Source of the DNA: Euglena gracilis
Taxonomy: Eukaryota
Assembly: GCA_039621445.1 (NCBI GenBank)
Contig: CP154954.1
Span: forward strand, 1 to 64,000
DNA length: 64,000 nucleotides
Reading direction: 5' to 3'
This document shows, one piece after another, positions 1 to 62,364 of the stretch (the stretch's first letter is position 1; each line of letters opens with the position of its first letter). Position numbers and translations under genes: made by a program. The notes beneath the pieces are model-generated. The model was not told where the DNA came from and did no database searches. It was given only the letters and a program-made list of their open reading frames with translations.

Positions 1-214
1 AAAGGACGAGGAGAACACGAGAGAAAGAAACGAAGCACACAGACGGGCAGAGCAGAAAGCGGGCCAAAGGGAAAGAGAAGCGAGAAACGGGGGAAGAGAG
101 AGAGAGAGGAGGGGCGGAAAGGAGGGGAAGAAGAAAACGCAGGGGGCAGAGGGGAGGAAGAAAAAAGACCCCGGGCGGAAACAAAAAAGAAAAAAGGGAG
201 CAGGAGGGGCAGCG
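1..214. other. Purine-rich low-complexity leader, probably low-quality read end
   Basis: Mostly A/G with some C and no T. Abrupt switch to chloroplast sequence at ~215. Unlike the ~25% GC plastid DNA. Confidence 0.7.
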
Positions 215-431
215 AAAACAAGAACAAAAATTTCAATACTCTTAAAAAAATTGAAATAAAAAATACTGTTTTATACACTTTCAAAAATTATTTAGTATAT
301 TTTTTACTAAAATCCTGAAATAAGTCTTACTTGAAGGATTTTTAATTTTTTGAAATTAGACAAAAGTTCAAATCAACATAAAAGTATAAATTATATAAAA
401 ATGCGTCAGACTTTATTTGTTGTCATAAATT

Positions 432-1351
432 TTATTTAGTAAATTGATCCATTTGTTCTAAAGCATTGAAACGATCAGAAATTAAAGGAGCTTGTTGTCT
501 TGTTTCTGTAAAATATTCGCTTGGACGAGGTGTACCAAAAATGTCATAAACAATTCCCGTGCTTACAAAAATCCAACCTCCAACAAATAATGACGGTATA
601 GTTACACTATAAAACTAAAAACAATAGAAAAAGTTTTTGTTTAAAAACTGTTGGAATGAACTATACAAAAACAGCTTATAATAAAATAATCTTCTGTTAT
701 CTAAGGAAAACCAAACAAAATAAATAACAGTTTTACAAAATATTAAAATTTAGTAAACAAAATATAAAATAAAAAATCCCTAAAATAAACACGTATTATT
801 TAGGTGCAAAAATATAAAAATAAAAAATTTTTTTGTTAAGTAAAATCAAAAATAATCTGCAATTTATTTCATTCACAAGAAAAACATTTGATTATTAAAA
901 TTTTTAAAACATTTAATATTAAGAAAATACACACATGAATTACCCAATAACGAATACTAGTAATATGAAATTAAACTTCCAAAGCTCATACCAAAACCGT
1001 ACAAACAAATACACTTGAGCTGTATACGGATTGAAAATTTAAAATAAAATTAAAAAATATAAAACAAATTTTATTTTACTTATAAAAAAATAAACAATGT
1101 TGAGATTTACTTTTAAAAAACTAAAAAATAGTAATAATTATTGTTAAACTTTCAAGGAAATACTTAAAAAATTATTTCAAAAATTATATAAACTAAATAA
1201 TAAGATAATAAAAAAAGATCAAAAAAGAAATATACTTATTAAACTTACACGTTTATCTCAAAGGATATTAATAAAATATTTGATAATAAAAAATGTATAT
1301 TCCAACGCGCACAATATCAGAAAAAGGACGTTCTCCTGTTGAGCCTGCCAT
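432..1351 (-). CDS. psbE: psbE, mirrored copy (2 introns)
   Basis: Reverse complement of 18860-19781; begins [13 protein letters not shown]. Confidence 0.9.
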
Positions 1352-1435
1352 ATTAAATTTCCCTTTAAAAAAAGCCCATAACAATTACTATATTCTAAAA
1401 TCATTAATTAACAAATAATAAGTAAAAAATTTTTA

Positions 1436-6915
<5,480 letters not shown>

Positions 6916-6926
6916 TTAAGATATAA

Positions 6927-13282
<6,356 letters not shown>

Positions 13283-13293
13283 TTATATCTTAA

Positions 13294-18775
<5,482 letters not shown>

Positions 18776-18859
18776 TAAAAATTTTTTACTTATTATTTGT
18801 TAATTAATGATTTTAGAATATAGTAATTGTTATGTTTTATTTTTAAAGGGAAATTTAAT

Positions 18860-19781
18860 ATGGCAGGCTCAACAGGAGAACGTCCTTTTTCTGATATTGT
18901 GCGCGTTGGAATATACATTTTTTATTATCAAATATTTTATTAATATCCTTTGAGATAAACGTGTAAGTTTAATAAGTAAAATTCTTTTTTGATCTTTTTT
19001 TATTATCTTATTATTTAGTTTATATAATTTTTGAAATAATTTTTTAAGTATTTCCTTGAAAGTTTAACAATAATTATTACTATTTTTTAGTTTTTTAAAA
19101 GTAAATCTCAACATTGTTTATTTTTTTATATAAGTAAAATAAAATTTGTTTTATATTTTTTAATTTTATTTTAAATTTTCAATCCGTATACAGCTCAAGT
19201 GTATTTGTTTGTACGGTTTTGGTATGAGCTTTGGAAGTTTAATTTCATATTACTAGTATTCGTTATTGGGTAATTCATGTGTGTATTTTCTTAATATTAA
19301 ATGTTTTAAAAATTTTAATAATCAAATGTTTTTCTTGTGAATGAAATAAATTGCAGATTATTTTTGATTTTACTTAACAAAAAAATTTTTTATTTTTATA
19401 TTTTTGCACCTAAATAATACGTGTTTATTTTAGGGATTTTTTATTTTATATTTTGTTTACTAAATTTTAATATTTTGTAAAACTGTTATTTATTTTGTTT
19501 GGTTTTCCTTAGATAACAGAAGATTATTTTATTATAAGCTGTTTTTGTATAGTTCATTCCAACAGTTTTTAAACAAAAACTTTTTCTATTGTTTTTAGTT
19601 TTATAGTGTAACTATACCGTCATTATTTGTTGGAGGTTGGATTTTTGTAAGCACGGGAATTGTTTATGACATTTTTGGTACACCTCGTCCAAGCGAATAT
19701 TTTACAGAAACAAGACAACAAGCTCCTTTAATTTCTGATCGTTTCAATGCTTTAGAACAAATGGATCAATTTACTAAATAA
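18860..19781 (+). CDS. psbE: Cytochrome b559 alpha; exons 18860-18898, 19249-19278, 19605-19781
   Basis: [35 protein letters not shown]... Confidence 0.95.
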
Positions 19782-19786
19782 AATTT

Positions 19787-20955
<1,169 letters not shown>

Positions 20956-26043: not shown

Positions 26044-28760
26044 ATGGAATTTTTTGCGTCATTAATTTTGTATTATTTTAAAATATTTTTTATGAAAAAT
26101 TCCTTCTTTATAATCCTTCAATATTTTAAAGATCAAATTTAATTTTATAAAATTTAACTTTTTTCTAAATTTTGGAATTTTTATTTATTTTTACTTGTTA
26201 AAATAACAATAATATACAGTATTAACTGAAATTGTTATTAATAAATCATTTATATTCTAATAAAAGCATGCATTATTAGTATTATTAGTAATACCTGAAC
26301 GAAACATGTATATTTTATATTCATTTATTGAAAAGCTGTACTATATGAAAATATTTTTTACAGTTTGTGAACAAATTTTTAATTAAAAGTTTTAGTTCAT
26401 TAGTTTACGAATTTGCATCATTTTTTGTAAAAATTTTATTTTATTTTATTATTTATACTTATTTGATTATTTTTATGAGGTTTTAAAACAGCACTTTTTT
26501 TGATAATACTGTTTCCTTAACACAACATAAAATTTATTTAGCATCTAAAAAATCAGATATATTTTTGGTTAAAAACAAACAACGGCGTTTTTTTAAAAGT
26601 TTTTATGCTCATATTTTTTCTGTTCGTAATTGCTTTGAAAAATTTCCTTCTTTACAATCGTATTTTTATTCTTCTAAGGATAAATTTTTTCTAGTATCAC
26701 TTTTATCTTCGAAAAGAAATTTATTTCTCCATGGTTTTTTTTATAACATTAAAAACGCGTTTTTGTTTTATTCTTATGATTTTTTTCTTCTATATAAATT
26801 ATCTTTTAGTCTTTTGTTAACAAGTACTCTTTTACCTTATATTAATGATATTAATCCTTGTTTTATAAAAGATTATTATTTTTTTGTTGAAGGCAACTTT
26901 TTTGATTTTGAACAAATTTTAATAGATGTTTTTAAGTACTCTTATTATTTTAAGGTCGAAAATTTTAAGTTTTTATATTTTGCTCGTTTTTCTTGGATTT
27001 ATAAAAATTTTCCTTTGGATGTAAATTTTTTAAAAAATTTTTTAGACCGTAAAAATTTGGTTTTTTTTAAGTCACTTTTTTTAATAATTTTTAATTTTAT
27101 ATTTAATGGATTGTTGCGAATTACTATTTAATGTGTTTTTTGAGAATTCTTAAACTTGTATTTTTAATAAAGTTATTCATTAGAAATAGAATTTTTTTTG
27201 CAGGTATTAAATTTTTGTATTATTAAATCATTAATTTTTTAATGAATTATCAATTTCTTCAAGATTTGTATAATAAAAAAAGAATATTTTTGTTAATAAG
27301 TAATTACGTAATCACCTTTTTTCGTTTTTGTAGTGAACTATAATGCTGTATTCTAAAATTGATTTTGTAGCTTTTTTTTAAAGCTATGTAATTTTTACGC
27401 ATGGTTTATATACAAATATATTTATATTTAGTTTTTTAATTTTTTTTTTCAAGAAGTGCGTATTGTTTGCTTTTTAAAAGTTTTATTTAAAAACTTAATA
27501 TTTTCGTTTCTTTCATAGGTTCTTTTTTATAAATTATTTTCAATTATTCAAAATAAAAATTACATAAGAAATAATTTGGAAAAATTTTCAGAAATTTTTG
27601 TTCTGAGTTTAATTGAAAAATCTGAATTTAAAAGTTTAAAATTTATTCATTTAAAAATAAGTTCTATTAAAAATTTTAACTAAAAAAACAATAAAAGTTA
27701 ATTCTATTGATTTAATCAAAATTAGACGTTTAGGATTATTCTACGCAATTTTTATTGTAATTTTTCCATTTGAAATTATGTTTCTAAAAATGAAATTTTT
27801 ATATCTTGAACTTATTGTTTCAGATAAAAAGCCTATTACAATTTGATTTGTATGATTAGGTTTGTTAAAAAACTTGTTAAAAGTCTATTTAAAAATTTTT
27901 TTATTAGTTATAAAGTTTATTATTTGTTTTATATAGATAAATTTTATTTTTTTTTTAAGTTTCCTTATGATTTTTTTATTTGTAAAAAAATTATTATATC
28001 TTTTTTTAGTCTTCGAGGGATTATTTTGAATATTAATATTAATTCTTTTTATAGATTTGAGACGTTTGTATTTAATTTTTTTATTTTCGATTTTTTAAGA
28101 TTTGGTTCAAATATTTTATTGCATATTAATAAAAAACATATACAATTTTATAAACTAAGTTTAAAAATGATTGTAAAAATGTTTTTAAAAAAAAGTGTAT
28201 TTTTTTTAGTAAATTTATTGAATAAAAAAATTTTAGATTGTTTAAACAGAGGTTTTTTTTGTTTTAATAACAATTTTCTATTTTTAGAATTAGATCTTTA
28301 TCTTTACCGATTATTGTGGAGATATATAAAAAAACTTCATTCTAGAAAAACTAGAACTTGGATTTACTCTAAATATTGGAAATTTTTTTCAGGAATTTGG
28401 AGATTTTTCATTACTGATATAAAAACAGGAAATTTTTTATTTTTAAAGTCTCATTTGTATTCTTCGAAATATTTTTATAGTTATAGAAATATGAAATTTA
28501 AAATATCTAATACTTTAAATATATTCAACTTATATAATAAAGGAAAATTAGAACGTATGATATTTGAAAAGTTCAAATATAAATTTTCACCTAATTTTAT
28601 TGTCTTATATAATAATCAGAGGGGACTATGTTTCTTTTGTAAAAAATCGATTTATTCGAATCGTTTTGTAATTTTGAACATAAAAAAGTGGAACTTTAGT
28701 TTCTTTGAAAATTTGATTTTAATTCATTTTTATTGTAATAATTTTAATCAGTTGCAATGA
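26044..28760 (+). CDS. roaA: Intron-split maturase-like ribosomal-operon-associated protein
   Basis: Lies between rps3 and rpl16. Last exon has group II maturase domain X-like LDLYLYRLLWRYIKKLHSRK..WIYSKYW and a CxxC...NL.LIH..C tail. Start approximate. Confidence 0.75.
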
Positions 28761-54916: not shown

Positions 54917-55126
54917 CTACGATAATACACCATATGGCTTCAGCTTCTCAAGTAAAGAATAACTAATATCCTCCACAGTAAATGAAGATGAAACTTTATT
55001 ATACATCAAAAATATGTTTTTAGCCGCTAAACGGAACGCAACTTTTTGCCTCACCTTACGGGACACGTCTGTTTCTATTGTGTAATTTTTTAACCTTTCA
55101 TTTAATATATCTTTTTTACGTACCAT
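54917..55126 (-). pseudogene. Truncated Rep N-terminal fragment
   Basis: FRLAAKNIFLMY matches geminivirus-type RCR motif I context FRLxAKNxFLTY; stops before motif II. Confidence 0.7.
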
Positions 55127-55471
55127 AGTAGTTTTCCTTGAATAATGTATTATTTTTTGCTTATTTCCCGTACATAGTATCTTAAATAGGAGTTGTATGC
55201 AGTCGTATTTAACGATTTACATGTTACATCCCTTTAATTGTAAAGAATTCTCATTACTTTTCATACACATAGTTCAAAACCGTTTGCCTGAGGCAGATTA
55301 CATTTATTTAGTAATAATATCATGTGAGTGACTTTTTTAAGTTATTAGTGCAATATTGTGATTGTGTTATTGCGTGGTTAATGTTTACAAAACCATACCC
55401 CGTTTTGTCAGTAACGACCGAGAATTTGCTAAGTAAATTGCCCCCTAATAATAATAATAATATAATAATAA

Positions 55472-55549: not shown

Positions 55550-55738
55550 AAAAAAGTAAAATCAAAGAAAAGTTCCTTTAATAAATTTGAAAAAAACGTT
55601 GGTAAAAACGCTAAATACCGACTGTCAGCTAGGAAAGTATTTCTTACATCTCCAAAATGCCCTTTATCTTTAGAATATGTTGCAGAATTCCTTAAATTTA
55701 GATTTATTAAAGTACGATACCATAATAAAAGGTTATAA
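55550..55738 (+). pseudogene. Truncated Rep N-terminal fragment, opposite strand, no start codon
   Basis: Translates to ...YRLSARKVFLTSPKCPLSLEYVAEFL... (compare FRLxAKNxFLTYPKCSLSKE). Confidence 0.72.
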
Positions 55739-55993
55739 AAGTTGTTCCTGCTGACCTTAAACTAAAACCAATAAAAATAACAAAAACGTGTCCACTAGGA
55801 TTTTATTCTCGGTGAACTTTAAAAAAGTTAATAACATTTTAATAACAACTAGCTAACTAAATTATTTATATTTTTAATTAAATAATTTTATAATAATTAT
55901 ACTAATAATAACAATTTAATAACAAACGTGTCCACTAGAATTTTATTCTTGGTGGACTTTAAAAAATTTTAATGGAATAATATAATAACTTAA

Positions 55994-56818
55994 TTATTTA
56001 TTAGTTATATTATCTAGTAACATACTAAGTAAAATATATAAGAAGTTCAAAGACCCAGTATATTCTCTTAAAAATAATGGCGATTCGTTGATAAATTTGA
56101 TTTTATATTTGGAAGGAATTTCATATTTTGTATGCTGATATATTTTAATTTCAGCTAATTGATTTTTTTTATTTGCTTTTAGCAAAAGGTTATTAAGAAC
56201 ATAACAAAAACAAAGACCTCCTAGTTTTGGTACGTTTGATATATTTAAAATTTTACCATTTTTAATAGTAGAAAAAAAGCTTTCAACTAAATTTTTAGTC
56301 CATACTCTTTTTTCATCAAATATCACATATATATTTAAATATAGCTGTGATTTTACTGCTTTACATTCTAATTTTAGATATGTCTCTTGAAGAATTTTAT
56401 CTTTGGAATCAGTATGTATTAATATTACAGGTTCTACCGAATACATTATCCATAGAATATCTTCACTTGTAATTAAATTAAGAAAATCTCTTATAAGGCT
56501 AGTATTAAAACTATCACATACGAAAATCTCAATTTTTAATTTTACAAAAAAAACGTTATTTTCATTGCTATAAAACTTAGTTAAACTAAACGAAACAAAT
56601 TTTATTTTTTTGTATGATTTTCTTACGTTCGTTAAGTTAACATTTTCATTCAATCTATTTTGAAAAGAACGTTTAACAGAATTTATTGTATTATCTGTAA
56701 GTGATTTATTAGTAATTATATTATAAATTTCTCCTTGATTAATATCGTCAATATTTTTATTTTGCCACGGTTTAATTGATTTATATAAAAATTGTTTAAG
56801 GATTCTATCAATAGACAT
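55994..56818 (-). CDS. Hypothetical protein, 274 aa
   Basis: Long uninterrupted ORF in very AT-rich DNA, 17 nt downstream of the 295-aa ORF. Confidence 0.7.
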   Translation of the reverse strand: MSIDRILKQFLYKSIKPWQNKNIDDINQGEIYNIITNKSLTDNTINSVKRSFQNRLNENVNLTNVRKSYKKIKFVSFSLTKFYSNENNVFFVKLKIEIFVCDSFNTSLIRDFLNLITSEDILWIMYSVEPVILIHTDSKDKILQETYLKLECKAVKSQLYLNIYVIFDEKRVWTKNLVESFFSTIKNGKILNISNVPKLGGLCFCYVLNNLLLKANKKNQLAEIKIYQHTKYEIPSKYKIKFINESPLFLREYTGSLNFLYILLSMLLDNITNK

Positions 56819-56835
56819 CCAATTAAAATACCACT

Positions 56836-57723
56836 CTATTTCATTATTGTTCTTTTTTTTTTATAAGTACAAATAAAAACATCCGAATATTTTGGTTTAC
56901 TTTGAGAATTTAAAATATTTATTTCTAGAATTAATAATTCTAAAATATAATTGCAAAATAAATCTCTTATTTTTTTCCCTTTATTGTTAATATTTATTAA
57001 ATCCTCACACTTTTTTGTATATTTTTCGGTTATTGCTAAAAATTCTGAATCCTCGAAAAAGCTCTTAATTTCAAATTGTTTTTCTTTTTTTATTTCTATT
57101 TTTTCTATTTCTTCGTCATTATCGATTTTTTTTGCTAAAACAGTTTTTCTTTTTTCTTTATCAATCTCTTCCGGACCTTTTTTTAAAACTTCAAGGAAAA
57201 TTTTAGGTAGAAAATAATTTCCCCTTGCTTTCTCAATTAAATTATATTGAGTAATAAATTTAAAACTTAAACAGTTATTATTTTTAGATTCATAGCGCGG
57301 TATTCTATTCCAAAAAAGTTCCTCTTCGGGGTCTCGGCAATTAATAATAAAACCACCAACATTGCCAGGACTATCCCCTTTAGCTTTTTCGATACTTATA
57401 ATTGTATTTTTATCAAAACTAAACAAGTCTTCTAAATATTTTGGCCGACAATTTTTCTTTAGTTCGAGGTAAGCTTTAATAAAAATATCGGTTTCTTTCT
57501 GAAAATCCACGTATTTGCATATGGTATACATAATAAAAGAAATTTTATCGTCGTTTATTATTGCATGCCATTTTTTAATAAAAGAATAATCCATTTCTAT
57601 TAAAGATTGAAAATTTGTCCTTATTAAAATTCTCCAATTACGTGTTATATTATAACTACCATAATATCTCGAACTTGTGGTGTTAATTTTGAATTTGTAT
57701 TTTTTTCTTAATTTTTGAACCAT
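56836..57723 (-). CDS. Hypothetical protein, 295 aa
   Basis: Long ORF with GGGAG SD upstream of the ATG; Lys/Glu-rich C-terminal half. Confidence 0.72.
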   Translation of the reverse strand: MVQKLRKKYKFKINTTSSRYYGSYNITRNWRILIRTNFQSLIEMDYSFIKKWHAIINDDKISFIMYTICKYVDFQKETDIFIKAYLELKKNCRPKYLEDLFSFDKNTIISIEKAKGDSPGNVGGFIINCRDPEEELFWNRIPRYESKNNNCLSFKFITQYNLIEKARGNYFLPKIFLEVLKKGPEEIDKEKRKTVLAKKIDNDEEIEKIEIKKEKQFEIKSFFEDSEFLAITEKYTKKCEDLININNKGKKIRDLFCNYILELLILEINILNSQSKPKYSDVFICTYKKKRTIMK

Positions 57724-58073
57724 AATTATTCTCCCATAAAAAATTTGTCCAATTAACTATAACTATATTCTTTCAACAATAGTTTATTGTTGACCTACCC
57801 AATTAATTTAACGCTTAATGCTCATACAACAAATTAGCTATTTAATAACAATTTAATAACAAGTTAGCAATAAAATAAAAATTAATTTGATAATAATTAT
57901 ACTAGTAATAATATTTATAATGATTTTAATCACAACTTTATAACAAAAAATAACAAAAACGTGTCCGCTGGTATTTTATTCTCAGCGAACTTTATTTTTT
58001 TTTTTGAAGTTTTGTTTTTGAATTGTTCATTTTATTCTCCCAAAAATAATAGAGCAATAATTTTCTAAATTTT

Positions 58074-58253: not shown

Positions 58254-58330
58254 TATAACATATTTATAACAAATAACAAATTAGTAATATTTTTATTACT
58301 AATAAAATAATAACATATAATAAAAACGTA

Positions 58331-59554
58331 TTAATTAGTATTTTTTTGATTATCATTTCCTTCATTTTCATCATTCATATTAGCTTTTTTTAAGAATTCT
58401 TGAATATAAACTTTAGTTTTACTTTCAAGTTCTCTGTATTCCTTTGATTTTTCCATTTCTGAATTATGAAAATGTGGGGGAAGTAATTTATCATCGGCAT
58501 TTAATTGATAAGGTAGTATGCCTTCCATTTCAATTCCTTTTTCTTTAAAAAATTGTTCCAAAACTTTATAAGGTTTTGACGACATTATAGCTTTTGGTAA
58601 AGCAGGAGATAAAAGTACTTTAACACTATTTTTTCGATTATGAACTTTTAACGTTGTTTCTAAAGAGTTAAATAAATTTTTTAGCTCATCTACATTTTGA
58701 TACTCTAAAATGCTAGAGTCTGAAAAAATTATCGCATCGTAATGACAAGTATTTCTAAATCGCAGTAAATCCTTAGCTTCCTTAACTACTAGAAGATAAA
58801 AGCCTTTGAATTGCAAATAAGATTCAAAAAAATCTATTAAATACCTAAGCTCACCGCCTAAAATTAAAAATACTTTATTTTCACCCATATTCAGATAAGA
58901 TTCATAAATGTCTAACATCCACCTTAAATCTCGAGGTATCACATAGTCATTAAAATTAATTTTTGCTTTAACTCCTAACCTTGTGCTTAAATATATGTTT
59001 CTAAGTCGTTTTTCAATAGCATCACCTTTATATACAAATTCAGAAGGTTTTTCTTTTTCAAACAACAACATAGCATCCGCTATCTCTCCTTTTTTTGCTA
59101 ATTCAATCATCCTTTCTTCTAATGGACAATATTCAAAATATTTACCATACTTTTTCAAAATTGATGGAGAAGCCATGAAATTTTTTGAAGCATCTACAAA
59201 GTTAAATATTTGTTTTGTTAAATAGTCCAACAAATCTTTCTCGTTATTAACTGTTTGAACATATGCACTATAAGTTTTAGAATCAACATATATATCAAAA
59301 AAATTTGCTGCCTTAGTGTCTATTTTTTTAATAAAAACGAAATATGAGTGTACATGAGGGTATCCGGTTTTATGAAACTATCTTACCAACGCATAATCAA
59401 CTAGTCCATATTTTACTTCAAATTTATTTTTAAAAAAATTTAAAATTTCTGAAAGATCTGCGGAACAATAAGAATAGGTTAAAAAAACTTTTTTTGATGA
59501 AATACGTCTCATATTATTATCAATGTTATTTTTGTTCGTATTTAATAAATTCAT
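58331..59554 (-). pseudogene. Geminivirus-like rolling-circle Rep (407 codons, single in-frame TAG at codon 59, 59378-59380)
   Basis: GGAGG SD + ATG at 59554; motif I KKVFLTYS, motif II R*FHKTGYPHVHSY, GRS-like NFFDI, motif III DYLTK; in frame with the 300-aa ORF. Confidence 0.85.
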
Positions 59555-60268
59555 AAAACCTCCCTATTTAATTTTTTATCATTTTTAAAAGACATAAAAA
59601 TTGCATTTAAATTTTTTTTAATTGCTACAAATTTTTTGATGTAGTAATCTGGCCTTTCTTTTTTTAAAAGAGATAGAGCCTTAAAAATATTGCCTTTTTC
59701 AGCTAGTTTTATCATGCGGTTCCAAAGTGACAACATTTGGTAATGATCATCTAATTTTACAGACAAACACGGACTAATTACTAACGAATCAGTAAAATCT
59801 TGTATACCATATGCTCTCTGACTTAAAACCATTTTTATTATATAATCGATAGAATATTCTTCTGACTTAGCTGCGCTATAATTTCCACAAACTGTAACCT
59901 CTTCACAGTCTTTTTTTAATCTCAAATCCAAAAAACGAGTCGAGCGCGTATCTAATCGTTTATCCACTTTAATGTAAGCATAAAAGTTAGCGGTTCTGCC
60001 TTTAAGGTAATCTCGTCCAACAATATAAGATAGTATTTTAACAATCCTTACTAGAAATAGATTTATTCGATATATATAAATTTAAAATAGATTCCATATT
60101 AATATTGTGAGATTCACAAAAAGCACGCCAAAATTCAGAATCTAAATTATATATTTTTCCTTTCTTTTTTCGTAAGGCCAAATAAGATTCTATTTGGTTT
60201 TTATTAAGAAAAGAACCTTTACCTTCAACGCTCTTTTCAAAGTTTAGATTATCATATTCGGATAACAT
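59551..60268 (-). pseudogene. Degenerate Rep paralogue (138-aa ORF extendable upstream; the overlapping 76-aa ORF is possibly its frameshifted N-terminus)
   Basis: RFLDL...GNYSAAKS...DYIIK (GRS + motif III), and ALSLLKKERPDYYIKKFVAIKKNLNAIF, which is homologous to the downstream Rep. Confidence 0.72.
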
Positions 60269-60538
60269 AACATTTTTTTTTACTTAAATTCTTGCCTAAA
60301 AGTCGAATTTTGAATTTTAATTTAATTAAATTAAAGAATAAATGAGTGAATCGAAACCAAAAACGTTTAAATCAAACTGTCAGTTTCAATACACTAACTA
60401 CACTATTTTATAGTTTAAGTAATAATATACTATAAAACAAACATAATTTTAAACTATTAATAATTGAAAAAATTTTTATTATAAAAAATCTATCAACATA
60501 AATTAAAAACGTATAATTTAATAAAACAATAAATTAAA

Positions 60539-62364
60539 CTACTTTTTAAGTTGAGTGACCTGGAATCTAGCACGTGCTTTTTTTAAATTTAAAGTTAATT
60601 CAAATTTTCTCTTAATATCTTTATTCATTTCTAAAGCATGTTTAGATGAATTATAAGAAATCTGTGCTTGTTCTACATTAATTTCGGAACCAAATTCTGC
60701 TTCATTGACTAATATAGTAACGTTATTGCTATTAATTAATGCAAAACCTCCTGTTACAACCAAACTAGTCCAATCGGAAGAAGACTTTTGACGAACTAAG
60801 ATTATACCTATATCTAATCCAGTCAATATTGGAATATTTAGATAGAAAAAAATTTATCATTAAAAATTAATAAATTAAGTTAATTTTTTCCCCAACAATA
60901 CAGTACGGGAGATTTAAATCTCATACGGCATTTAACAAAAAATCTTTTAAAATTTGCTTAAAAATTGACTAAAACTAAATTGTGATAGAATCAAAAGTAC
61001 TAAAAAAAAACAAAAATTTTGTAAATAATTTACATAAAAATACACATTCCTTACCATTGCATACAAATTTAAAAATTTTTTAGATTCAAATATTATATCT
61101 TACAAATTATGTTTATCAAGTATTGTTTTTAAAAAAATTAAAACTATTAAAAATTTTTTCTAAAACATGTAAAAACACTTTAAATAGTTATAAAATAACA
61201 GTTTAAATATATTCTTCTAAAACAAGACTTAAATATACATTTTCAAAATAAACTATAAATTATATTAATCTTAAAATTTTAAATTTTTCTTATTTATAAA
61301 AAATAATTTATAAAAAAGTAAATTTTAAATTTTAGAAAATATTCAAAGCTACCACGCACAAACAAAATGTTAATGCAGAAAATAAAAATAATTAACTAAT
61401 ATGGTTAAAAGTAAAAGTAAAGTTAAATCTCAAACAAGCATTTATCAAAAAATTATAATTAATAAAATTAACAAACGTTTTAATAATGTGTCACACATGG
61501 TCTTTAAGAACCCCCATCTGACCACTTAAAGTAGGAAGAATAATTTCTTCAACTCGTTTTTCCCAAAAAACTCTTTCAGGAATAAGTAAAGTAGAAAATA
61601 TAAATTCAATTTTGAAAATTTTATTCACAAACTAAACAAAAATTGTTGATTTATTTAGCTTTTCAACATACTATCGCAAAAAAGGTTAGGTTGTTTTATA
61701 TTATATAAAACTCTAAAACAAGACTTATTAAAACTAAAATGTAAAATTTTCTTTAGAATAAAAATTTATAGAAAATTAAATTAAAACCTATTCTCTTTGC
61801 TTTTATTGGTCTACTAAAATAATAAATAAATTTCAATTACCAAAAAATAAAATAATTTTACTTTTCATACAGAAAAGTTTAAAAAAGAGAATAAAATCCC
61901 CAAAAACGAAAATTATTTAAAAAATTAACTTTTGAAAAATAAATACTCAAGAAAAAAGATTTAAACTAGAATTTAATGAAAAAAGAAATATATTAGCGAA
62001 CTAAAATTTCTCTTAAAAAACTGTACAAGTAAAAAAAAACATACAGCTTAAACATTTAATTTTAAATAAAAATATGTCAAAAGTTTATTCTTTATTAAAA
62101 AAAAATCCAAAATAAAACCTATTTACGTTCTACTTGAAAAATTACTAAACTTATTAACAAATTATTGAAAATATTAAGATTAACCAATTAGATTAACCAA
62201 TTTTTTAATTAATATGAATAGCCAAAAACATACAATTTAAGGAAAATTTACTTAACTTAAAAAAAACACATAAATAAAATTTTATTTCTTATCTTTTATT
62301 TTAACTTATACCTAATAAACTAAAAGCAACTTCGTAACGTACTAATTGATACATCTAATGTCAT
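60539..62364 (-). CDS. atpE: ATP synthase CF1 epsilon; exons ~62343-62364, 61497-61585, 60539-60833
   Basis: MTLDVSI|.IPERVFWEKRVEEIILPTLSGQMGVLKDH|IPILTGLDIG... Confidence 0.93.

Follow-up and report, generated by a model that had tools for sequence, protein, structure and literature searches.

Does the spacer between atpE and rbcL in a Euglena gracilis plastid genome conceal a working replication enzyme, or the remains of one? The question arises from a reading frame of 407 codons on the minus strand at 58331-59554 of the window, by which is meant the whole stretch of DNA analysed (64,000 nucleotides; positions 1 to 64,000 of contig CP154954.1, assembly GCA_039621445.1). The frame resembles a replication initiator (Rep) of the geminivirus type and is broken by a single in-frame TAG. 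An initial inspection of the letters alone, referred to below as the sequence-only reading, proposed that an otherwise catalytically complete nicking enzyme is hidden here by a recent nonsense mutation or a sequencing error. The analysis favors a different answer: the locus probably holds one or more dead relics of integrated, plasmid-like Rep minicircles and no longer specifies a replication initiator.

An interrupted Rep frame

The frame runs as a single unit from the ATG at 59554-59552 to the TAA at 58333-58331 and consists of 58 codons, the TAG, and 348 codons. The listed open reading frames (ORFs) on it are 58 and 300 amino acids long, the latter from a TTG at 59233; translation carries the frame 107 codons beyond that point to the ATG at 59554, as the sequence-only reading had proposed. 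The same reading had placed a Shine-Dalgarno (SD) site before this ATG, and GGGAGG is indeed found four nucleotides upstream. A single database entry exists for the frame, a 281-residue product that starts at Met127 and has no Pfam domain on record. The features of the gene, designated copy (c), are given below with the evidence in brackets; residue counts refer to 56 more distant relatives, with the relatives P0005, P0006, and P0020 counted apart.

59559..59564, minus strand: Shine-Dalgarno-like GGGAGG, 4 nucleotides upstream of the ATG at 59552-59554 (sequence)
58331..59554, minus strand: Rep copy (c), with nuclease, central, and SF3-helicase-like domains and one TAG (translation, Pfam, alignments, AlphaFold2 model)
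59474..59485, minus strand: motif I, FLTY, codons 24-27; T26 kept in 55 of 56 relatives (alignment)
59378..59380, minus strand: in-frame TAG, codon 59, in the Glu column of the relatives (translation, alignment)
59348..59356, minus strand: motif II, the HUH motif, H67-V-H69; H67 in 55 and H69 in 54 of 56 relatives (alignment)
59291..59302, minus strand: FFDI (translation)
59213..59224, minus strand: motif III, YLTK, with catalytic Tyr111 (55 of 56) and Lys114 (53 of 56) (alignment)
58835..58858, minus strand: degenerate Walker A, GGELRYLI; relatives GxxGxGK[TS] (alignment)
58718..58732, minus strand: degenerate Walker B, IIFSD; relatives IIFDD (alignment)
58574..58585, minus strand: degenerate motif C, MSSK; the Asn of 52 of 56 relatives is Ser (alignment)
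58280..58303, minus strand: hairpin immediately 3′ of the TAA, with a 10-bp stem and a 4-nucleotide loop (folding)

For similarity searches, the frame was translated across the TAG, with X in its place. The Pfam profile Gemini_AL1 (PF00799) matches at 32.2 bits against a gathering cutoff of 24 (expectation value, E, 1.2e-7), with residues 17-115 falling on profile positions 2-101 of 113. The solved geminivirus Rep nuclease domains in the PDB are also matched by sequence (6q1m, E 2.7e-6; 7vg8, 3.5e-6; 6we0, 9.6e-6; 1l2m, 5.6e-4). An exhaustive HMMER search returned 355 relatives at E ≤ 1e-3, 77 of them at E ≤ 1e-10. The full-length matches are 30-34% identical to the window protein and are led by P0002 (E 1.3e-43), followed by P0003, P0004, and P0007.

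The AlphaFold2 model, which inherits its fold from the underlying family alignment of 60 sequences, has a mean predicted local distance difference test score (pLDDT) of 88.1 and a predicted template modeling score (pTM) of 0.63. The sequence-only reading had staked the identity of the gene on an HUH endonuclease fold, and this is the fold predicted: in Foldseek comparisons, the N-terminal domain superposes on the Rep of tomato yellow leaf curl virus (TYLCV; 7vg8_A) with E 6e-9, a template modeling (TM) score of 0.85 on the target, and a root-mean-square deviation of 2.0 Å, and on that of wheat dwarf virus (WDV; 6we0, 6we1, and 6q1m) with TM scores of 0.81-0.85. The whole chain aligns with the CRESS Rep hexamer 9pqq_A over 372 columns, and the C-terminal domain with SF3 and AAA+ helicases, namely SV40 large T antigen, papillomavirus E1, and RuvB. 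Thus, judged by sequence and predicted structure, the frame is a genuine homologue of geminivirus/CRESS-type Reps with their HUH nicking, central, and SF3 helicase domains. Membership of the Geminiviridae is a separate matter; no Pfam match to the Rep central domain (Gemini_AL1_M, PF08283) was found in the window gene, and no capsid or movement genes accompany it, so that both PF08283 and the capsid gene that mark this family are missing.

The frame is much more open than chance would allow. In the remaining five frames of this 1.2-kb stretch there are 25-62 stops, none of 20,000 shuffles has two or fewer, and base composition gives a probability of approximately 1e-16 that 407 codons contain no more than one internal stop. 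An accidental open frame carrying accidental motifs would be consistent with the AT-rich, low-complexity look of the sequence and with nothing else. The shuffles, the Pfam score above the curated cutoff, and the 77 relatives at E ≤ 1e-10 leave it a negligible probability.

Catalytic motifs and the in-frame stop

The nuclease half retains much of its catalytic apparatus. FLTY, HVH, FFDI, and YxxK occur in the order that the sequence-only reading had given, and R17, T26, H67, H69, Y111, and K114, each conserved in 53-55 of the 56 relatives, are all present. Motifs I, II, and III have the same order and spacing as in the HUH domain of geminivirus Reps (TYLCV 7vg8/1l2m, WDV 6q1m/6we0; PF00799). 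The TAG was likewise correctly placed at the geminivirus Glu: in a gap-free alignment, codon 59 corresponds to the E of VRELHEDGSPHLH of the solved Reps, and the column holds Glu in 54 of 56 relatives as well as in the close relative P0020. In CRESS-type HUH sites, this acidic residue upstream of HUH presumably serves as the third metal ligand. A second loss affects G97, N98, and Y99: the H-G-N-Y of the relatives is S-A-Y-V in the window. Compared with geminivirus Reps, the window copy is only ~17% identical (to the begomovirus Rep P0154), has a stop in the Glu column, has lost the H-G/P-N block, and is integrated in a plastome. Of the features that define PF00799, the profile score above the cutoff, motifs I-III in order, and, in the model, the HUH fold are present, while the acidic residue upstream of HUH is absent.

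The helicase half has also lost conserved residues. In Walker A, G236 (50/56 relatives) is replaced by L, G238 (53/56) by Y, K239 (56/56) by L, and T/S240 (56/56) by I. Walker B D278 (54/56) and motif C N326 (52/56) are both replaced by S, and the Arg finger is absent, the window having EMEGIL for the AIxRRI of the relatives. No P-loop NTPase Pfam model matches the window gene, while nSTAND3 matches 11 of the 19 members of alignment A1. Of the features that mark a CRESS-DNA Rep, Walker A (GxxxxGK[TS]), Walker B (hhhhDD), the motif C Asn, the Arg finger, and an uninterrupted frame are absent. The description of the enzyme as otherwise catalytically complete does not survive the loss of Walker A and B, the motif C Asn, the RR finger, and G97/N98/Y99. 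As judged from the alignments, completeness would apply to part of the nuclease domain only, and a read-through protein would be at best a nickase without a motor, not a complete Rep.

The TAG is the only internal stop of the frame. It is a genuine stop codon in this genome, since both atpE and orf295 end in TAG. Escape by an intron or by recoding was considered and rejected; the homology is colinear and gap-free through the stop, and TAG terminates atpE. After the TAG, there is no in-frame start before TTG108 or Met127, both of which lie past the HUH motif. Therefore, only read-through could place the HUH motif and the catalytic Tyr on a single polypeptide, and with this stop and late restart the gene cannot yield a complete Rep.

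The alternative offered by the sequence-only reading, in which the TAG is a sequencing error or a strain-private mutation and an intact 407-residue nicking enzyme works in the plastid, draws on the intact motif I, HUH, and catalytic Tyr/Lys, on the Glu in P0020, the nearest relative that covers the stop column, and on the presence of just one stop across the 407 codons. An isolated sequencing error is unlikely, as the exact 58-residue ORF ending at the TAG has been called on eight contigs of the protein collection, the longest being 9,159 bp. The 2.1-kb locus also recurs almost word for word in 19 runs from 12 studies, at a resolution that does not extend to a single base; none of the runs is recorded as RNA, which carries no information on expression. 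The TAG could still be a mutation private to a widely used strain. Even then, the read-through protein would lack every SF3 ATPase catalytic residue as well as G97/N98/Y99, and a working enzyme at this locus is considered highly improbable.

The close relatives indicate that the decay of the helicase is old. P0006 is 73% identical to the window protein over residues 213-312, and its Walker A (GSEHRYLI) and Walker B (FVN) are dead in the same way; loss of the ATPase thus preceded the split between the window and P0006 lineages. All of these relatives are known as short ORFs only: P0005 has 89 residues (89% identical), P0006 has 114, and P0020 has 91 (53-56%). P0005 and P0006 each derive from a single JGI contig of 1,379 bp, which is probably shared by both. 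If so, the relative would be broken between residues 196 and 213 and again after residue ~300.

Relatives, further copies, and the plastome setting

The closest full-length kin of the window gene are encoded by small circles. In a FastTree phylogeny of 65 sequences (midpoint rooted, with P0005 and P0006 left out), copy (c) pairs with P0020 at a support of 1.0. Both (c) and a second window copy, (d), described below, fall in an 11-tip subclade (support 0.94) whose tips include P0002, P0003, P0004, P0007, P0008, P0011, P0012, and P0015; the inner nodes of this subclade are weak (0.54-0.79). The run-assembly contigs that carry P0002, P0011, P0018, and P0048 are 1.8-2.0 kb long. When IMG/VR was scanned with the subclade alignment, 163 candidate stretches emerged, of which 146 were confirmed; the confirmed stretches correspond to 78 loci. 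The two best, L002 and L003, are circular contigs with terminal overlaps of 121-122 nucleotides; L002 is ~1,883 bp with a guanine-plus-cytosine (GC) content of 32%, and L003 is ~2,387 bp with 30% GC. Each encodes Rep alone, with no capsid gene, and the L003 Rep is P0015. The window Rep is 29% identical to that of L002 over 367 residues (E 8e-41). More distant relatives include the capsid-encoding CRESS virus L001 and the begomovirus Rep P0154.

The nearest whole relatives are thus AT-rich, plasmid-like minicircles that carry only Rep. These circles (L002, L003, and those of P0002, P0003, P0004, P0011, and P0015) are 29-34% identical to the window protein over ~350 residues (E down to 1e-43), share its subclade, and at 30-32% GC are AT-rich like the plastome. 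They differ in being free, in their size of ~1.9-2.4 kb, in having all catalytic motifs intact, and often in a basic N-terminal extension, whereas the window copies lie inside the plastome. Of note, the ~300-nucleotide non-coding region of L002 contains GC-rich hairpins. L002 (1-2005) and L003 (1-2508) may be organelle or protist plasmids.

Other searches returned no matches. A tblastn search of bacterial plasmids and phages was empty, leaving an origin from a phytoplasma-type plasmid unsupported at that sensitivity. No matches were obtained in single-protein viral scans with P0004, P0003, and P0007, and metagenome scans for close relatives confirmed none of 145 stretches with the C-terminal part of the window protein and none of 221 with P0006. 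The exact 30-mer adjoining the TAG had no match in the genome-contig and viral-contig collections.

A replication origin was sought as a stem-loop near rep with a nonanucleotide resembling NANTATTAC in its loop. The nonanucleotide TATTATTAC presumably belongs to the type that serves origins of the CRESS/nanovirus kind. On the Rep strand, it occupies the loops of two A/T-only hairpins, one at 60404-60437 (stem of 9 bp) and one at 57894-57921 (stem of 6 bp), with another occurrence at 55319 on the minus strand. By all three measures, these candidates do not stand out from chance: two occurrences in loops were observed against 0.97 expected, the folding z scores are -0.82 and +1.10, and 3 of the 10 occurrences in the window fall within a region that makes up 8.8% of it. 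No shared origin motif was recognized in the non-coding regions of L002 and L003.

Genes in the window include psaA, psaB, rbcL, and atpA, all split into many exons, together with rpl2, rpl22, rps3, rpl5, atpB, and atpE, at 17-32% GC, and by gene content and intron load the window is a plastome of the euglenophyte type. The Rep locus lies between atpE (60539-60826, minus strand) and the rbcL exons (from ~52.5 kb downwards, minus strand). When the whole window was searched in six frames, with 17 members of the family as queries, three further pieces were found, giving four Rep-derived pieces in the atpE-rbcL spacer, of which copy (c) is the largest and best preserved.

59551..60081, minus strand: Rep copy (d), 176 open codons (138-residue ORF from a GTG), family residues ~45-190 (six-frame search)
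54926..55081, minus strand: Rep fragment (a), motif I region only, FRLAAKNIFLMY (best E 4e-4)
55580..55723, plus strand: Rep fragment (b), motif I region only, on the opposite strand, KYRLSARKVFLTSPKC (best E 7e-6)

Copy (d) lacks motif I and the helicase; its HUH motif is degraded to N-F-Y, YxxK is kept, and the central domain is well preserved. Copies (c) and (d) are 27.9% identical to each other (E 3e-14), and each is 34.1% identical to P0004. On these values, the two may stem from an old duplication or from separate integrations, with neither favored. Fragments (a) and (b) are plainly debris.

Three further ORFs are interleaved with the Rep pieces on the same strand, encoding 274 (55994-56818, minus), 295 (56836-57723, minus), and 76 (60038-60268, minus) residues. 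They match no Pfam or PHROG family, are not Rep-like, and do not resemble one another. The possibility that orf295 and orf274 are derivatives of a capsid protein or of Rep was rejected, with an hhalign probability of 0.2%, no Pfam or PHROG family, and Atlas scores (0.79-0.84) at chance level. Open frames of such length would not be expected in DNA this rich in AT. The three ORFs may represent additional cargo of the integrated element or elements. A dispersed repeat of 94 nucleotides occurs at 55757-55850, 55897-55990, and 57930-58023, in the gaps between these ORFs and the Rep pieces. Its copies are 64-72% identical to the reference copy and have a conserved inverted core of the GTCCAC...GTGGAC type; they may be processing hairpins or element boundaries.

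Elsewhere in the window, a near-perfect palindrome has arms of ~9.7 kb each (380-10047 and 10162-19833) around a spacer of 114 nucleotides. It comprises four inverted-repeat pairs that are 97-100% complementary, with the psaA/psaB exons duplicated in mirror image, and it may be a true large inverted duplication or a fold-back artifact of assembly. At the edge, an open frame at 1-318 (plus strand) is purine-rich and would encode a low-complexity Lys/Arg/Glu/Gly peptide; it is probably a repeat tract and not a gene. Two ORFs at 26565-27131 (plus strand, 188 residues) and 27843-28760 (plus strand, 305 residues) are rich in F, L, K, and N, lie between ribosomal protein exons, and may be intron-encoded.

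Decay, constraint, and biological meaning

Decay is favored because the close relatives are broken, debris confined to motif I is present, and the stop falls inside the nuclease domain. It is proposed that a small, AT-rich circular replicon carrying only Rep, plasmid-like and not capsid-encoding, entered a euglenophyte-type plastid genome. The residues for ATP binding and hydrolysis were lost from the helicase before the split from the close relative. In this genome, the nuclease domain is in addition cut by the stop at the conserved Glu upstream of HUH.

Several observations weigh against this proposal. The frame has one stop where ~38 would be expected at equilibrium in DNA of 26% GC, the per-codon stop probability in this DNA being 0.094. 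A stop is created by 6.5% of the possible single-base changes in the frame, and the probability of retaining at most one is 0.036 or less at a per-lineage divergence of at least 0.065. Copy (d) holds 176 open codons despite its lost HUH motif. Differences from the close relative are unevenly spread, with 10 of 89 positions in the central domain versus 27 of 101 in the helicase region (Fisher p 0.0096), which hints at past or present constraint. The signals around the gene, i.e., the SD-like site, an ATGA overlap, and the 3′ hairpin, look like those of an expressed unit. A further point concerns the evidence itself: the model, driven by the family alignment, does not show that this particular copy folds.

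GGAGG occurs only 13 times on the Rep strand of the 64-kb window; in the same plastome, psaB has a comparable AAGGAGG, and rpl2, rpl22, rpl5, and atpA have none. The ATGA is a four-nucleotide overlap in which the ATG of copy (c) meets the TGA of copy (d). The 3′ hairpin has a folding energy of -5.9 kcal/mol (z -2.64), and 3 of 200 shuffles fold equally well; it is possibly a plastid mRNA 3′ stem-loop. GC content by codon position is patterned as in the host genes, with a third-position value (GC3) of 0.18 within the host range of 0.15-0.25.

An interpretation that builds on such features is that the pieces are domesticated remnants, in which ATPase-dead Rep derivatives have been selected as separate proteins for a non-replicative role in the plastid, the stop being tolerated or part of the arrangement. 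The candidates are copy (d), the 58-residue N-terminal piece, and the 281- or 300-residue product that starts after the nuclease domain, and a role could be, for example, DNA binding or oligomerization via the conserved central domain. Consistent with selection are the 348 and 176 open codons in very AT-rich DNA, a frame that stayed open though its helicase site was lost before the split from P0006, and a central domain that is more conserved than the helicase region and is retained in both (c) and (d), with G156 and A161 kept. The expression-like signals and the host-like codon-position GC with its GC3 point in the same direction. However, one stop is the neutral expectation if the split was recent (P = 0.53 for at most one stop at a per-lineage divergence of 0.02), the close relatives survive only as ORFs of 89, 91, and 114 residues, the similarity of P0006 ends after residue ~300, suggesting breakage elsewhere, and fragments (a) and (b) are plainly debris. 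Domestication, including any such role, is accordingly regarded as possible but unlikely, and the remains of integrated minicircles are still the probable explanation of the locus.

Relics of geminivirus-type Reps integrated in organelle genomes are an already known kind of element. According to the available part of their report, Liu et al. (2011, PMC3198968) found a truncated Gemini_AL1 Rep-like gene in Phytophthora mitochondrial genomes, read it as an integrated plasmid, and related it to the Reps of red-algal plasmids. As in the window, an organelle there holds a truncated geminivirus-type Rep, but it is the mitochondrion of an oomycete, and the likeness is one of description only. In red algae, plasmids with geminivirus-related replicases and plasmid-derived DNA in plastomes are described in the accessible portion of Lee et al. 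(2016, PMC4814812). The red algae, too, are likened to the window by description only: they combine gemini-like Rep plasmids with decayed plasmid genes in plastomes, but they are another lineage, and their plastid-integrated pieces are, as far as that portion goes, mainly other plasmid ORFs (with a PolB-like domain). For euglenid plastomes, a literature search found no report of a Rep-like gene; subscription papers lay outside its scope, and an earlier description is possible. The available parts of two euglenid plastome papers (PMC9728796, PMC3534033) do not mention such a gene.

No working hidden enzyme is revealed by this locus. Its identity had remained hidden behind an old-style "orf281" hypothetical because the product as called begins beyond the nuclease domain and carries no Pfam domain; this hypothetical can now be explained as a Rep remnant. 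Foreign DNA in plastid genomes is rare, and each case informs on how DNA enters. Here, the cluster of four pieces and the minicircle kin suggest that a plasmid-like replicon has integrated more than once into a secondary green plastid, and they provide a data point for the proposed kinship between algal and organelle plasmids and geminivirus Reps. A wider proposal is that euglenid plastids host, or once hosted, minicircles of the L002/L003/P0002 clade, that these integrated repeatedly in the atpE-rbcL spacer, and that the products of (d) and (c) were domesticated as DNA-binding or nicking factors. Taken as a whole, this proposal is quite doubtful. If it were true, the minicircles, uncultured and AT-rich, would be protist organelle plasmids and would form a living link that joins the organelle plasmids of algae to the ancestry of geminivirus-type Reps.

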